A stretch of DNA of 64,000 bases from a virus (lineage: Duplodnaviria; Heunggongvirae; Uroviricota; Caudoviricetes). Positions 24,188 to 64,000 of the stretch are shown here, piece after piece. The notes below the pieces were generated by a model. That model was not told the DNA's origin. It worked only from the letters and a program-made list of their open reading frames with translations, and ran no database searches. Location: IMG/VR virus record IMGVR_UViG_2737471993_000002; one strand, given 5' to 3'. The position numbers and the translations under genes are program-made. Positions within the stretch are counted from its first letter, which is position 1. Each line of letters opens with the position of its first letter.

Positions 24188-24262
24188 GATGGTGTAGCTC
24201 AGCGGTAGAGCAGTTGGCTGTTAACCAACTGGTCGGTGGTTCGAATCCACCCACCATCGCCA
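24188..24262 (+). tRNA. tRNA-Asn (anticodon GTT)
   Basis: Acceptor stem GATGGTG/CACCATC, anticodon loop CTGTTAA, T-arm GGTGG-TTCGAAT-CCACC, discriminator G and encoded CCA. Confidence 0.8.
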
Positions 24263-24267
24263 ATTTA

Positions 24268-24354
24268 GGGGAGTTAGTCCGTAGAGGTAGCGGTGTAGAC
24301 TGTAAATCTACTGTCATTGCGACTCGGGTGGTTCGACTCCATCACTCCCCACCA
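24268..24354 (+). tRNA. tRNA-Tyr (anticodon GTA), long variable arm
   Basis: Acceptor GGGGAGT/ACTCCCC, anticodon loop CTGTAAA, long variable arm, T-loop GGTTCGACTCC, encoded CCA. Confidence 0.75.
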
Positions 24355-24358
24355 AATT

Positions 24359-24434
24359 GCCGGTTTAGCTCAGTTGGTAGAGCGCCTGCCTTGTAAGCAG
24401 GATGTCAGCGGTTCGAGTCCGTTAACCGGCACCA
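24359..24434 (+). tRNA. tRNA-Thr (anticodon TGT)
   Basis: Acceptor GCCGGTT/AACCGGC, D-arm GCTCAGTTGGTAGAGC, anticodon loop CTTGTAA, T-loop GGTTCGAGTCC, encoded CCA. Confidence 0.8.
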
Positions 24435-24658
24435 ATACAACGATAAGATCATTACGGTTAATCGTCGTTCATGTGCACAATGACTGGTCGAAAGGTAGTG
24501 ATCTTACCGTTGTGGTGGATTCGCAGACTGATGCGATAGCTTTCTTGGATGTTAGGGAAATGCGGCCGCAAATCTTCCCTTTCGCGAGCGGTGATCGTCC
24601 GTAGTCCTAATTGGCTGCACCGTATGCCGGAGATTCAGTACCGGCCACCACAATGGCC

Positions 24659-24745
24659 GGAGAGTAGGGAGCATGGTGCTCAAGCGGTCTTGAAAACCGT
24701 CCCATTGCGCAAGCGATGATGGTTCGATTCCATTACTCTCCGCCA
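24659..24745 (+). tRNA. tRNA-Ser (anticodon TGA), long variable arm
   Basis: Acceptor GGAGAGT/ACTCTCC, anticodon loop CTTGAAA, long variable arm, T-loop GGTTCGATTCC, discriminator G plus CCA; D-arm is atypical. Confidence 0.6.
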
Positions 24746-36090: not shown

Positions 36091-36363
36091 AAAGAATTAT
36101 GGCGCTTGTTGAGGAAGTCACTCCTCTTACGCACTTTGTTTTGCCATGCCGGCAGTTAGCTTCTGCCTTTGACTATTCATGCGGCAACCCCGCATTTCGC
36201 CACAATGGGCAATTCACTTTTATGGAATAAACTGGCCGTTGTGTCGATTTAATTAGCATGGCCTTACCATGCTAATTTATTCAACTTGTACAATCCTACA
36301 AATCTATCCACTCAGGCTTACACCGTCTTCGTTATTGTAGAAATGAGGATCATCAGCGTTGAA

Positions 36364-36579
36364 TCAGCTTAGAGCAACGACATTTGCTGCTGCTGGGCCT
36401 TTAGCCCCATTCTCGATAGAGAATTCGACCTGCTGGCCTTCTTCCAAAGTGCGGAAATTATTACTCTGAATTGCCGAAAAATGTACAAAAACATCTTTAC
36501 TGCCATCAGCAGGAGAAATAAAGCCAAAGCCTTTATCAGAGTTAAACCATTTTACTAAACCAGTCATTTTATTAGACAT
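36364..36579 (-). CDS. Cold-shock protein (CspA family)
   Basis: Start at internal Met ([23 protein letters not shown]..); RNP1/RNP2 motifs KGFGFI and VFVHF; 71 aa; ~270-bp upstream noncoding leader. Confidence 0.85.
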
Positions 36580-36908
36580 AGATATTACCTTCTTAATTTT
36601 GTGAGCCACATAGTGCGGCGAGAATTTGATCTGTATAGATTGGGACTTACTTAGGCACTTAAGGAGGAGACTCACGAAGAAGGGAAATCAGAAGATAACA
36701 CTGAACTGAGACTGCTTTACTAAAACTGCTTACATAAGGTCTGTCTTGCAAACCAACGATGCTATTAACGCATACCCCTTCTTTTCATGCAACCTTTATT
36801 TTTCAAAGATAACTAATTTTTGTCACCATTGGTTTAGTAAACGTTAACGAACCAGACGATGCCAGACACCTTTACAGAGAACAGATGCCCGCCAATTGGC
36901 GGGCATCA

Positions 36909-44721: not shown

Positions 44722-45254
44722 ACCGCTGACAGCATACACAATCAACTACCGCTGATAGCATATCGAGAGTCTATCTCACCGCTCACAGCATACTTTACTC
44801 GATTTTTTACCGCTGACAGCATACTTAAGACATTGCATGAATAATGTGTACCGGTATGGGTATAACCAGAACAAAATTACCGCTGGCAGCATACGAAGGT
44901 CTGACATATACCATTAATTACCGCTGATAGCATATCCAAACAAAAATTCCTCAATAAAACACCGCTGACAGCATACGTTCTATCAGGGAGCAGCAGGCAA
45001 TAAATGCCTTTCACTACAAGCAATCAGCGCAATAGCAATAGAATGTTAGTGAGCGCAAACCTATATGGAATGCACTCTTCGAGGTTAGTAACCACTGGGG
45101 AGGTATGACAGAGCATTGAGTGGTGATAGATGATTTACCGCCCACAGCATACGTTCATCTCACTATACCGCTGGTAGCATATATTTAACCGTTTACAGCA
45201 TACTTTTCAGAAAAATAGCCGCTGATAGCATACATTTCACCGCTGACAGCATAT
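44722..45254. repeat. Iteron array (12 copies of ~16-bp ACCGCTGACAGCATAC) downstream of repA
   Basis: Copies at ~44722, 44748, 44778, 44809, 44879, 44920, 44961, then 45137, 45167, 45188, 45218, 45239; minor variants (GATAGCATAT, CACAGCATAC). Two clusters separated by ~160 bp. Confidence 0.85.
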
Positions 45255-46348
45255 CAAAGCAGTTTGAGACTATTGGAAAGGATCTCAATCATCTTGATAT
45301 TTTCAGGCGTCAAATTCTGCGAAAGTTCGGTTATCTTGTTGATAATGTTCTGTTTGGCATCAATTTCCCCAGCTTTCTCATCTAGTTTTTTGGGTTCGAT
45401 GTCTTCAGGTTTTGGCGGTGCGACTTTGAGTTTTGGATTGCGGCTGTGAATCTGGATATAGATCGACCGCCCTCGCTTAATCTCGCTGTATTCGAGATAA
45501 CCCAAATCTTGGAGAGCTTTTAAGCCGTTGCGTATAGTCTGATTCTGCGAGCTGACATTCCTGCTACTCAAATTGAGTCGCGCACGCAATCGAGCAAGCG
45601 ATACCGGCGCAGGCTTGGTTGGAAGACTTTCGATGAAGGTGTACAGAGCCTGTGCTGTTTCTTTGCGTGGTAGCTTATTGATAACCTTTAACTGCAAAAG
45701 AACCTTATGGTCAAAGCGATATAGTTCGGCCAGCTTCGGTTCTGCATAGAACACCACCGTATCTTTCTGCTCGTTGTAGTCCACGCTATTGATGAGGTGC
45801 ACCATCAGAAGCGAGATCTTGTTAGAGCCGTCGACGTTCTTTTCTTCATACGTTCTCTGGAAAGACAGAGTTGTACGCATGATCTTCAAAAGACTGTTTG
45901 TAAGCCGGTCGCGGAGTGTTTTGCGGATCTGTGACGATGGATAGCCACAAAACTTCGCAAATTTCGTGATGCTTAACTCGACACGACCGTTAGGTTCGCC
46001 GTATTCTGCCAGCGAACGCACAACGCCCACCCACGTTTTGAAATCATGATCCATGTCGAGACGAGGACCGGTTATCTTGATATCGGAATAGCCTTCAGAA
46101 CGGGCTACTTCGAGCTGAACAAGCTCCTTTGAAGCATCGATCTCATTTGGCTTGTTACGCTTGCTGTATTTTGTCCCCTTGAGCGTGGGCACGAACAATC
46201 CCAGCCGCATCAACGCAATTGGTTGGACTGTATTGTTGCTATTAGGGACAAGTTCCCCTGTGTACAATTCAAGGGAACCTTCTTCAAAGTTGTCGAGATT
46301 ATCTTCTACTTCTTTGTTATTTTTACCTTTTTTATTTTTTGTGGACAT
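45254..46348 (-). CDS. repA: Plasmid replication initiator RepA (RepFIB / P1 RepA-like)
   Basis: Start at internal ATG 46348 with AAGGTG SD (the longer track ORF would run through the upstream iterons). Motifs NTVQPIALMRLGLFVPTLK, ITGPRLDMDHDFKTWVG, QALYTFIESLP, PVSLARLRARLNL recalled as RepFIB-type signatures. Confidence 0.85.
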   Translation of the reverse strand: MSTKNKKGKNNKEVEDNLDNFEEGSLELYTGELVPNSNNTVQPIALMRLGLFVPTLKGTKYSKRNKPNEIDASKELVQLEVARSEGYSDIKITGPRLDMDHDFKTWVGVVRSLAEYGEPNGRVELSITKFAKFCGYPSSQIRKTLRDRLTNSLLKIMRTTLSFQRTYEEKNVDGSNKISLLMVHLINSVDYNEQKDTVVFYAEPKLAELYRFDHKVLLQLKVINKLPRKETAQALYTFIESLPTKPAPVSLARLRARLNLSSRNVSSQNQTIRNGLKALQDLGYLEYSEIKRGRSIYIQIHSRNPKLKVAPPKPEDIEPKKLDEKAGEIDAKQNIINKITELSQNLTPENIKMIEILSNSLKLL

Positions 46349-46368
46349 GTGGACACCTTTGTCATTCA

Positions 46369-46470
46369 ACCGCTGACAGCATACTTGATTTGCCGCTGAC
46401 AGAATACCAAAAACAGTTGGCAGCATACGGTGAACCGCTGACAGACTATCAATTACCGCTGACAGCATAC
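46369..46470. repeat. Iteron array upstream of repA (origin-side, ~5 copies)
   Basis: ACCGCTGACAGCATAC-type repeats at ~46369, 46392, 46417 (partial), 46434, 46455. Confidence 0.8.
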
Positions 46471-62297: not shown

Positions 62298-62320
62298 TTT
62301 GTTCTGGCGTCTGTAATTAG

Positions 62321-62385
62321 CCTGCTTCTGTATATATAAATAACTACATATTAATTATTAATATACGGAAGCAGGCTGTTTTGTA
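62321..62385. repeat. Copy B of duplicated long hairpin module
   Basis: CCTGCTTCTGTATAT...ATATACGGAAGCAGG directly after methyltransferase stop; 3' arm identical to copy A, 5' arm differs by one base that converts a G-U wobble into a Watson-Crick pair. Confidence 0.6.
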
Positions 62386-62482
62386 TCAGAGACTCCAGAC
62401 CTGAACATCACTACAGAATCCACTAGAACCCCTTCCCAGACGCTTTAAAATCGATTTTATGAACCACTTTAAGGAAACCAAC

Positions 62483-62713
62483 ATGTCATACCCGACTAAT
62501 GTCGTTGCGCTCGTAGAGAGCGATTTTCTGGCCCAGGCTCGTGAAATGATGAAAGATCGTGAGCAGGCTTTCAACTTGTACGAATGGGCAATTAAGTGCT
62601 TGCATCTTGGCGAGCATCGCGAACTTGTTGAACAGCTTTTAGGTGAGTTGATCAATGAGGTGTTTGCCTTGAATGTTCAACTACATGGTAGAGAAAATAA
62701 TCAATCACAATGA
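62483..62713 (+). CDS. Hypothetical small protein
   Basis: ATG at 62483 with AGGAA SD; 76 aa. Confidence 0.45.
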   Translation: MSYPTNVVALVESDFLAQAREMMKDREQAFNLYEWAIKCLHLGEHRELVEQLLGELINEVFALNVQLHGRENNQSQ

Positions 62714-63298
62714 TAGATAAGTACAAACTATTCATAAGGTGAATTGTAAGTGCTAAGATCTGATAGTTTCCAGTCGTAGACTGGAGACTCGACCTGATGG
62801 GTGGGGGTAAGCGTCACTGGCGTCAGGTTTAAAAAAGCTCACTACCAGCGTAGAACTGGTGCCGTTTAGGTGTCGGGGAAGGGGGAACCAAAGTGAGCGG
62901 AGACAAGGGTCACTTTATGATTGTCGAGTCTGGGGTGTTTCGAGAGGTTGAATCCAGTACTCCCCTTCATAAAGTGTGGGAAGATCTCGGTTCTGGGGTG
63001 CTGTCATCCATAACTTCCCAAGTCTAAGCTGGCAGTAGACTTAGACCATAACTTTTCAGGTTATGAAACGACCAGGTTGGTGAGGGATTTTTATACTCAC
63101 CTCCCTGGGAGAGTATTACCTGAAAAGACAACCTCTCACTTCGTTCGAGGTGAACTTCACTCACTTCGTTCGTTCAGTTCAGGTTTATAAAAACCTGTTC
63201 TGGGAAGTAATTTGTTTATTTTAATAATTATTAACACGCACGCGTGTGCGCACGCGCGAGGAAAAAAAATCGGCGCGGCGCTTGATTCAGGAGTTTAT

Positions 63299-63892
63299 AT
63301 GACGACGAAGACACCAGCCCGATCGCAAGAAAAAACTCGCAAAAAAGCCAAAAACAAAAATTCTCCCCGCACCAATTCCACAACGCCTGTCGTAGAGTTC
63401 AATCCCCAGCTTAAAACCGTGAAAATCTTCAGTGATGGCTCTTGCCTTAAAAATCCGGGTGGCCCGGGCGGTTACGGTATAGTTCTCCAGTATCGTGGTG
63501 AGGAACGCGAGTTCTCAGATGGTTTTCATAGCACCACCAATAACCGCATGGAGATGATGGGGGCACTTATCGGGCTGGAGCGTTTGAAATATCCATGCAA
63601 CGTTATTTTGCACTCTGATAGCCAGTATCTGAAAAACGGCATGACACAGTGGATGAAATGGTGGAAACGCAATGGATGGGTGACTTCTGACAAAAAACCG
63701 GTAAAGAATGTTGATCTGTGGAAGCGTCTGGATGAGGCTGCAAGTCGACATAATGTTCGCTGGAAGTGGGTTAAAGGTCACGCCGGGCATCGTGAAAATG
63801 AAATATGTGATCGACTCGCGAAGATCGCAGCTTTTTCCGCAGCAGATATGCCTCACAAGAAAGATATTGGTTTTGTTTACAACAAGCAGTAA
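63299..63892 (+). CDS. rnhA: Ribonuclease HI
   Basis: ATG at 63299 with CAGGAG SD (track start upstream is unlikely). Basic N-terminal extension then RNase H motifs [40 protein letters not shown]. Confidence 0.85.
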
Positions 63893-64000
63893 GTAAGTGT
63901 TTACCTATCATTTTAAATCATGTATCTTATCGGCGTCAGGATGACAATGTGTCGGTAAGACACAGTTCCAGGATGGAACGAGAAAGGCGGCTGGCAATCG

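Follow-up and report, generated by a model that had tools for sequence, protein, structure and literature searches.

Several large and highly conserved non-coding RNAs of bacteria are orphans with many covariation-supported helices, among them ROOL, GOLLD (phage/prophage), OLE and raiA. Here we describe positions 62714-63298 of a 64,000-nt stretch of viral DNA (IMG/VR record IMGVR_UViG_2737471993_000002; the whole stretch is called the window throughout), a region that is very likely the gene for a highly structured non-coding RNA of ~460 nt, encoded on the + strand and specific to SSU5-like phage-plasmids. Over the 1.1 kb surrounding the region, identity was 98-99% with Escherichia phages CMS-2020a, PhiR41_1 and Cyrano and 80-83% with Salmonella phage SSU5 and SSU5-like elements of Klebsiella, which places the window in an SSU5-like phage-plasmid of E. 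coli. An earlier note on this DNA, made from its letters alone, had offered a replication origin, a packaging site or a structured RNA as candidate roles; the last of these is now strongly supported by covariation, by conservation above that of the flanking genes, by a positionally conserved promoter and by published RNA sequencing (RNA-seq).

The region extends from the stop codon of a gene for a small protein of 76 amino acids (aa) to the ATG of the RNase HI gene rnhA, and it contains only open reading frames (ORFs) of 30-46 aa on either strand, in agreement with its initial description as ORF-free (Table 1). Our alignment comprised 37 distinct copies, drawn from plasmids, genomes and contigs of IMG/VR, with a divergent Cronobacter-like clade (~68% identity) among them. 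Base pairs were counted on the RNAalifold structure, using as controls the same helices with 3' partners slid by 1-3 columns and 500 shuffles. The consensus fold of the + strand (-244 kcal/mol, versus -208 kcal/mol for the - strand) comprised 19 helices with 142 pairs, including the 5' hairpin P1, and 97.1% of cells were paired compared with 35-49% in the controls. Compensatory changes affecting both sides of a pair were found in 32 of the 142 pairs, against 3-6 in the slid controls and 16.9 ± 2.4 in the shuffles (none of the 500 reached the observed value), with a covariation score of 0.163 versus 0.024-0.055. The single sequence also folded better than expected by chance, with a minimum free energy of -169.1 kcal/mol (z = -5.9) on the + strand and -139 kcal/mol (z = -4.8) on the complement, which bears out the earlier view of a structured region. 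The + strand was identified as the folding strand because numerous invariant G-U pairs would become A-C mismatches on the other strand, and also because of its lower energy in both the alignment and the single sequence. Screening of the unpaired columns for extra helices or pseudoknots revealed no covariation. The GGTGAG...CTCACC hairpin already pointed out in the earlier note is present and belongs to the covariation-supported helices. The two 13-nt direct repeats are likewise present; both provide helix strands within the RNA fold, and in the Cronobacter clade the second has lost 7 nt, so that we regard them as structural elements rather than iterons.

Segment identities over a ~2-kb locus were measured against SSU5, pHCM2, one Klebsiella element and one Enterobacter element. 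The core of the RNA (62788-63210) was 95.0, 95.0, 90.1 and 95.5% identical, respectively, versus 74-80% for the coding sequences of the flanking dam, small-protein and rnhA genes (45-58% at third codon positions) and 46-58% for the 74 bp carrying the promoter and the first hairpin. Within this locus the RNA core was thus better conserved than the three flanking protein genes, and a non-coding block more constrained than the neighbouring proteins calls for a function at the level of its sequence. The insertions and deletions of the RNA region are not multiples of three. The largest internal ORF, 44 aa long and annotated as CYRAN_81 in Cyrano, was rejected as a gene; a 1-nt deletion shifts its frame in the Klebsiella clade, an in-frame stop interrupts it in one further copy (L054), and in the Cronobacter clade it has neither a start codon nor a related sequence, with the RNA pairing still kept throughout. 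A conserved short coding gene and a known RNA family had both been named beforehand as what might instead cover the region; the disruption of the largest ORF in other clades speaks against the former, and the latter found no match in Rfam. At the gathering score, Rfam 15 recognized only cspA and tRNAs in the whole window, and at E <= 10 the segment 62250-63400 gave only sub-threshold microRNA, small nucleolar RNA and other unrelated models, mostly at an AT-rich hairpin in 62300-62400.

The region was found by blastn in 687 PLSDB plasmids and 12 phage records, the plasmid hosts being Klebsiella, Escherichia, Enterobacter, Salmonella (including pHCM2 of S. Typhi) and Citrobacter, and positions 62788-63293 were 88-92% identical in Salmonella, Klebsiella, Enterobacter and Citrobacter elements. 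Among 5,426 complete E. coli genomes, 232 carry the RNA, with 232 places on plasmids and two on chromosomes. PGAP had placed no annotation under the RNA in 233 E. coli RefSeq records, and our literature search found no paper describing it. A metagenome scan returned 57 true members, all within the same two clades, and a gapped pattern scan of IMG/VR gave only chance matches beyond the two known clades. Scanning species-representative genomes with the small protein yielded five loci. Thirteen environmental metagenome contigs (L131-L195) were considered as homologues and rejected, since they share only the 21-mer AACCTCTCACTNCGTTCGAGG in unrelated contexts (soil, peat). On the reverse strand of some of these soil and peat contigs, the 21-mer forms a hairpin with a Shine-Dalgarno sequence ahead of an ATG; in others it adjoins GTCATTTCGAGCGAAGCGAGAAATC-type repeats.

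A putative sigma-70 promoter precedes the RNA. Four clades share its geometry and the key bases of the -10 hexamer (TAnnAT) in surroundings that are only 46-58% identical, and an extended -10 TG, one base 5' of the -10 hexamer, occurs in three of the four. The promoter of the window scores 8/12, below the threshold of a simple scan, and was for this reason missing from that scan's list. Transcription is predicted from the sequence to start near 62766, the first base of P1. The A/U-rich tail that follows the last helix is probably a terminator U-tract or a spacer, judging from its composition. Immediately upstream, the window has a degenerate palindrome where SSU5 has the perfect GGTAAGTACTTACC; the related intergenic palindrome TAGGTAAGTnnTTACCTATCA occurs at seven sites of ~21 bp in the window (8678, 14629, 38458, 43931, 52119, 61671 and 63890), where none is expected by chance, and is probably an operator or promoter element common to early genes.

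Expression of the RNA could be followed in the published RNA-seq of E. coli LF82 carrying Cyrano, a 97% identical phage-plasmid (PMC9928086). In stationary phase in lysogeny broth (LB), normalised counts were 9.5 for the upstream gene CYRAN_80, 117 for CYRAN_81, which lies inside the RNA, and 8.4 for CYRAN_82 (rnhA) (S1 Table of that paper); after 6 h in macrophages, the corresponding values, as log2 of fragments per kilobase per million (fpkm) + 5, were 5.2/5.0, 10.35/10.30 and 5.0/4.8. CYRAN_81 thus exceeded both flanking genes 12-14-fold in LB and ~35-40-fold in macrophages, where its signal rose ~10-fold. Because these per-feature counts are so far above those of both neighbours, we conclude that the RNA is probably a discrete and abundant transcript of the plasmid-prophage state, bounded on both sides. 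Strand-resolved profiles are part of the same data set; data for LF82 with Cyrano are deposited as GEO GSE154648. Table 1 of that study also lists CYRAN_43, a 'hypothetical protein' expressed 723-fold above the prophage background in lysogeny, which could be another highly expressed small gene or RNA.

The gene rnhA is the next gene after the RNA in most elements carrying it, but is missing or replaced at four loci (L003, L007, L122 and L123), namely in the Cronobacter clade, in an Enterobacter element with betT cargo and in two plasmids that carry a second type of RNA described below. The RNA is conserved in all of them, so that rnhA is dispensable for its retention and the RNA is independent of rnhA.

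In sister lineages the slot between the small-protein gene and rnhA holds other sequences. A different structured RNA of ~480 nt (class B, as opposed to class A for the RNA of the window) occupies it in 30 Klebsiella plasmids, in elements of K. oxytoca and K. pneumoniae whose small protein is ~50% identical. The class B fold has ~149 predicted pairs, of which 14 show compensatory changes among only six sequences, and rnhA again follows in most elements. The class B gene begins after the same type of palindrome and a -10 box, and contains an internal, canonical terminator-like hairpin with a U7 run; this run can pair instead in a longer helix, suggesting alternative folds. Moellerella and Xenorhabdus hominickii have in common a non-coding block 3' of the small gene (76-78% identical, indel lengths not divisible by three), which may be a third class, class C. 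No homology between class A and the sister-lineage RNAs was found with nhmmer, a covariance model of the 62908-63048 domain recovered only the member from the Cronobacter clade, itself one of its training sequences, but no class B or class C locus, and Rfam gave no match to the class B, class C or Cronobacter loci. A kinship of class A with the sister-lineage RNAs drawn from loosely similar abstract fold shapes was set aside, such likeness not being evidence. It is tentatively conceivable, though we hold it rather doubtful, that a dedicated slot filled by unrelated RNAs of ~450-480 nt represents a new functional class, serving either as an effector of the lysogenic state or in RNA-DNA hybrids with RNase HI. 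Such an effector might determine specificity or immunity, or might mediate host interaction after induction inside macrophages.

Beyond the demonstrated structure, conservation, non-coding status, independent transcript abundance and independence from rnhA of this RNA, the explanation that we favour, with moderate confidence when taken as a whole, is that of an RNA gene whose product acts in trans in the lysogenic state. The RNA would be transcribed from its own sigma-70 promoter with a start near P1, fold into its 19 helices, end in or just past the A/U-rich tail (~63210-63233) and accumulate as a discrete transcript as long as the element is a plasmid prophage, where it would serve as a prophage-maintenance or host-interaction effector rather than as a leader of rnhA. 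Action in trans, alone or as a ribonucleoprotein, has on its own a little short of an even chance. It is favoured by the RNA's own promoter, its discrete abundance bounded on two sides, its persistence without rnhA, and a size and sequence constraint such as RNAs with a tertiary structure or with protein partners typically have. Several observations weigh against this explanation. The RNA-seq support consists of per-feature counts for an annotated ORF of 135 nt in a relative rather than of coverage in this element, and a terminated leader would give the same picture of a high leader and a downstream gene at background. Most of the compensatory changes separate two major clades, the main and the Cronobacter-like one, and their subclades, so that the independent events are modest in number. 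When the remainder of the window was searched for complementarity to the RNA, no match fell below E = 0.1. Lastly, the ancestral order places the RNase HI gene directly 3' in both class A and class B, an association that a generic trans role leaves unexplained.

It is unlikely that the RNA works in cis, as a leader or attenuator for rnhA and the early genes after it, with transcription mostly terminating at the 3' domain and U-rich tail in lysogeny and with read-through, by means of a phage antiterminator or another signal, turning on the downstream genes. The RNA is co-directional with, and inside, a long early operon, a GC-rich hairpin and a poly-A run lie between it and the ribosome-binding site of rnhA, and the terminator-like hairpin of class B with its suggested alternative folds would fit such a device. 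Nevertheless, the RNA is 95% identical where unrelated cargo replaces rnhA and is retained by a clade in which another gene follows, its ~460 nt and 19 helices far exceed known attenuators, and class A shows no evident terminator/antiterminator alternative.

We consider a lytic origin primed by RNA quite improbable. By analogy with ColE1 RNA II, the T4 and T7 origins and mitochondrial OriH, the transcript would enter the A/T-rich stretch and persist there as a hybrid (R-loop), the primer being trimmed by the phage RNase HI. The position of the RNase HI gene directly 3' of the RNA in classes A and B would suit this model, as would the order of promoter, G-rich structured RNA (G 116, C 87), 23-nt stretch of 4% G+C and GC-rich tract, and the location of the locus within a cluster of DNA-metabolism and replication genes; RNA-based prophage origins have also been reported for mycobacteriophages (PMC7157519). 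Against it, the RNA is expressed in the non-induced plasmid state, in which the expected origin is an iteron replicon at 44722-46470, 16-18 kb from the RNA locus. There, 12 iterons ACCGCTGACAGCATAC (44722-45254) and five more (46369-46470) flank a RepA gene of the Rep3 family (404-aa ORF, 45254-46468, - strand, Rep3_N WH1 domain) in a P1/RepFIB-like layout of oriR plus an incA-like array. This replicon and the lack of a GC-skew turning point anywhere in the window also leave the earlier proposal of a replication origin, in the plasmid sense, unsupported. The R-loop model is further opposed by the persistence of the RNA without rnhA and by its full-length covariation, which argues for a self-folding RNA. 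As for the antisense control known from ColE1, there was no Rfam match to RNAI and no conserved antisense promoter over the RNA, the only - strand promoter-like site (62772 to 62743) firing away from it. Nor did a comparison, albeit a weak test, show a likeness of the upstream small protein to Rop: its single-sequence AlphaFold2 (AF2) model, a shallow one of four helices (predicted local distance difference test score, pLDDT, 72.5), had no match in the PDB at E <= 0.001, none of six weaker fold matches was Rop, and no Rop-like sequence match was found.

Two further candidates were rejected. As an iteron origin the RNA locus offers only two 13-nt repeats, the 17 iterons and RepA lying elsewhere; as a type III toxin-antitoxin system it lacks a tandem array (two copies 25 nt apart, one of them truncated in the Cronobacter clade), and its neighbours are a protein of the phrog_5343 family and RNase HI.

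The 25-nt tract of perfectly alternating purines and pyrimidines reported in the earlier note, ACACGCACGCGTGTGCGCACGCGCG, was found as described, 3' of the A/U-rich tail and outside the conserved covarying core. It is the longest such run in the window (the runner-up has 15 nt), and none of 200 shuffles reached 25 nt (maximum 23, typically 14-18). As a long uninterrupted run rich in CG and CA/TG steps, it qualifies by composition as Z-DNA-prone. The tract is kept across the main clade with indels, is 9 nt shorter in pHCM2 and is reduced to CGCGCGAG in the Cronobacter clade; together with the A-run it stays with the RNA where rnhA is replaced. In E. coli copies that are otherwise nearly identical, the A-run differs in length (A5-A9) and is therefore a slippage-prone homopolymer. 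A GC-rich hairpin with the A-run as its loop is predicted at 63248-63281, a stretch that folds no better than shuffled sequence (z = -0.63). We interpret tract and A-run as a 3'-flanking element of the RNA module and not as an origin core; the tract might form a hairpin for termination or attenuation, bind a protein or adopt the Z form. It is highly improbable that the region works purely as DNA with incidental transcription, be it as a pac or cos site, as a signal for single-strand initiation or as a regulatory site of Z-DNA or cruciform type. For the packaging site suggested in the earlier note, at which no analysis was aimed, no observation spoke either. The palindrome-built tract is statistically exceptional, and folded single-stranded DNA would also tolerate G-T pairs, but it is the core, not this variable tract, that shows the highest conservation and all of the covariation, and the promoter is conserved and the transcript abundant. 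Finally, it is hardly credible that a small protein encoded by CYRAN_81 explains both conservation and expression, since the ORF, annotated in Cyrano and intact in the E. coli, Salmonella and Enterobacter copies, is disrupted in the Klebsiella clade, L054 and the Cronobacter clade with the nucleotide structure kept in all, and since conservation runs 300 nt past it.

Table 1 Features of the RNA locus and of the corresponding slot in sister lineages. Positions refer to the window unless a locus (L) is named.
Feature	Position	Strand	Remarks
Upstream 76-aa gene (phrog_5343)	62483-62713	+	5' of the RNA slot in 7/7 aligned loci, every lineage examined
Degenerate palindrome copy	62714-62734		Left half TAGATAAGT of TAGGTAAGTnnTTACCTATCA; perfect copy in SSU5
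Putative sigma-70 promoter, E. coli (window)	62731-62759	+	-35 TTCATA, 17-bp spacer containing TG, -10 TAAGAT
Promoter, Salmonella (SSU5)			-35 TTTAAA, 17-bp spacer, -10 TAAAAT
Promoter, Klebsiella			-35 TTTACG, 17-bp spacer, -10 TAGAAT
Promoter, Cronobacter			-35 TTTACC, 17-bp spacer, -10 TAACAT
5' hairpin P1	62766-62788	+	Sequence varies, pairing kept; 5/7 pairs changed on both sides
Conserved structured RNA core	62788-63210	+	Conservation, covariation, fold energy
Long hairpin of core	62791-62829	+	
Junction domain of core	62837-62898	+	
44-aa ORF (CYRAN_81, 'hypothetical protein' in the Cyrano annotation)	62893-63027	+	Spurious, not coding
Four-arm multibranch domain	Closed by 62900-62910 with 63131-63137	+	
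GGTGAG/CTCACC hairpin	63079-63101 (strands 63079-63084 and 63096-63101)	+	Tip of long RNA arm, part of helix 16; compensatory changes in Cronobacter clade
Two 13-nt direct repeats CTCACTTCGTTCG	63135-63147, 63160-63172	+	Bases are strands of helices 7, 17 and 18
3' domain of core	63138-63208	+	
A/U-rich tail after last helix	63209-63233	+	4% G+C; sequence differs among clades, A/T-rich in every clade
GC-rich alternating purine/pyrimidine tract, 25 nt	63234-63258		Overlapping palindromes CACGCGTG and GTGCGCAC
Poly-A run	63262-63269		Length varies; just 5' of rnhA ribosome-binding site
rnhA, RNase HI with basic N-terminal extension	63299-63892	+	Pfam RNase_H 1.6e-44; usual downstream neighbour
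Class B loci, Klebsiella SSU5-like plasmids	L093 2726-3295, L094 2726-3376		
Candidate class C block, Moellerella / Xenorhabdus hominickii	L095 3393-3762, L119 3077-3456		

The RNA locus lies in a long run of + strand genes, the early operon mentioned above. In pHCM2 the order is sbcCD, nrdAB, thyA, dhfr, a 3'-5' exonuclease gene, a Dam-type methylase gene, the 76-aa gene, the non-coding stretch and rnhA, with Rha, a DUF4942 protein and an HD-domain protein encoded further downstream. The true start of rnhA in the window is the ATG at 63299, with GGAG in front; a listed 226-aa ORF beginning at TTG 63212 is the same gene with an upstream extension. An AT-rich long perfect hairpin (GCCTGCTTCTGTATATAT...ATATACGGAAGCAGGC) at 62319-62378, where the methylase gene is followed by that of the small protein, drew weak matches to microRNA models, is kept in relatives and is probably a terminator or regulatory hairpin. 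A further hairpin, GTGTC-GGTAA-GACAC, lies 3' of rnhA in the leader of the next gene (63949-63963), where SSU5 has GTACC-GGTTA-GGTAC, a compensatory change which suggests that structured 5' ends are common in these transcripts. Elsewhere in the window, four tRNA genes (Asn-GTT, Tyr-GTA, Thr-TGT, Ser-TGA) are clustered at 24188-24745, ARAGORN having found no others, and the cspA thermoregulator RF01766 was matched over its full length (185.7 bits, 36339-36757, - strand), so that the phage-plasmid carries a cold-shock protein gene with a regulatory 5' untranslated region.

SSU5-like phage-plasmids are common in clinical Enterobacteriaceae and also spread resistance genes. Despite its expression in the carrier state, their RNA is unannotated in all RefSeq E. 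coli records examined and absent from Rfam. It extends the short list of large orphan RNAs of bacteria and phages by one that is experimentally tractable, as Cyrano in LF82, SSU5 and pHCM2 are available, and the occurrence of unrelated large RNAs at one locus hints at a modular RNA function in the biology of phage-plasmids.

Compared with known systems, the locus has in common with iteron origins (P1 oriR/incA, RepFIB) direct repeats and an A/T-rich stretch, but its two 13-nt repeats are RNA helix strands, whereas the real arrays of 12 and five iterons accompany RepA at a distance. Like ColE1 RNA II, it specifies a structured plasmid RNA of ~0.5 kb followed by an A/T-rich stretch and associated with RNase H; unlike ColE1, it showed no RNAI match, conserved antisense promoter or Rop-like protein, its element has an iteron/RepA replicon, and the RNA is kept without rnhA. 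With the c4 RNAs of P1/P7 and the CI RNA of P4 it has in common that it is an RNA of a plasmid prophage, expressed in lysogeny and swapped for a different RNA in sister lineages (cf. heteroimmune variants); those are antisense RNAs of ~70-80 nt with known targets, whereas the present RNA is six times larger, did not match the Rfam C4 model and found no complementary target in the window. The likeness to ROOL, GOLLD, OLE and raiA comprises a length of several hundred nt, many covarying helices, very high conservation, residence on a mobile element and a function that cannot be inferred from the neighbours. With no sequence or structure match to any Rfam model, theirs included, the RNA of the SSU5-like elements stands apart from them by its hosts, the phage-plasmids of Enterobacteriaceae, by its fixed syntenic slot between the 76-aa gene and rnhA, and by its documented expression in the lysogenic state.

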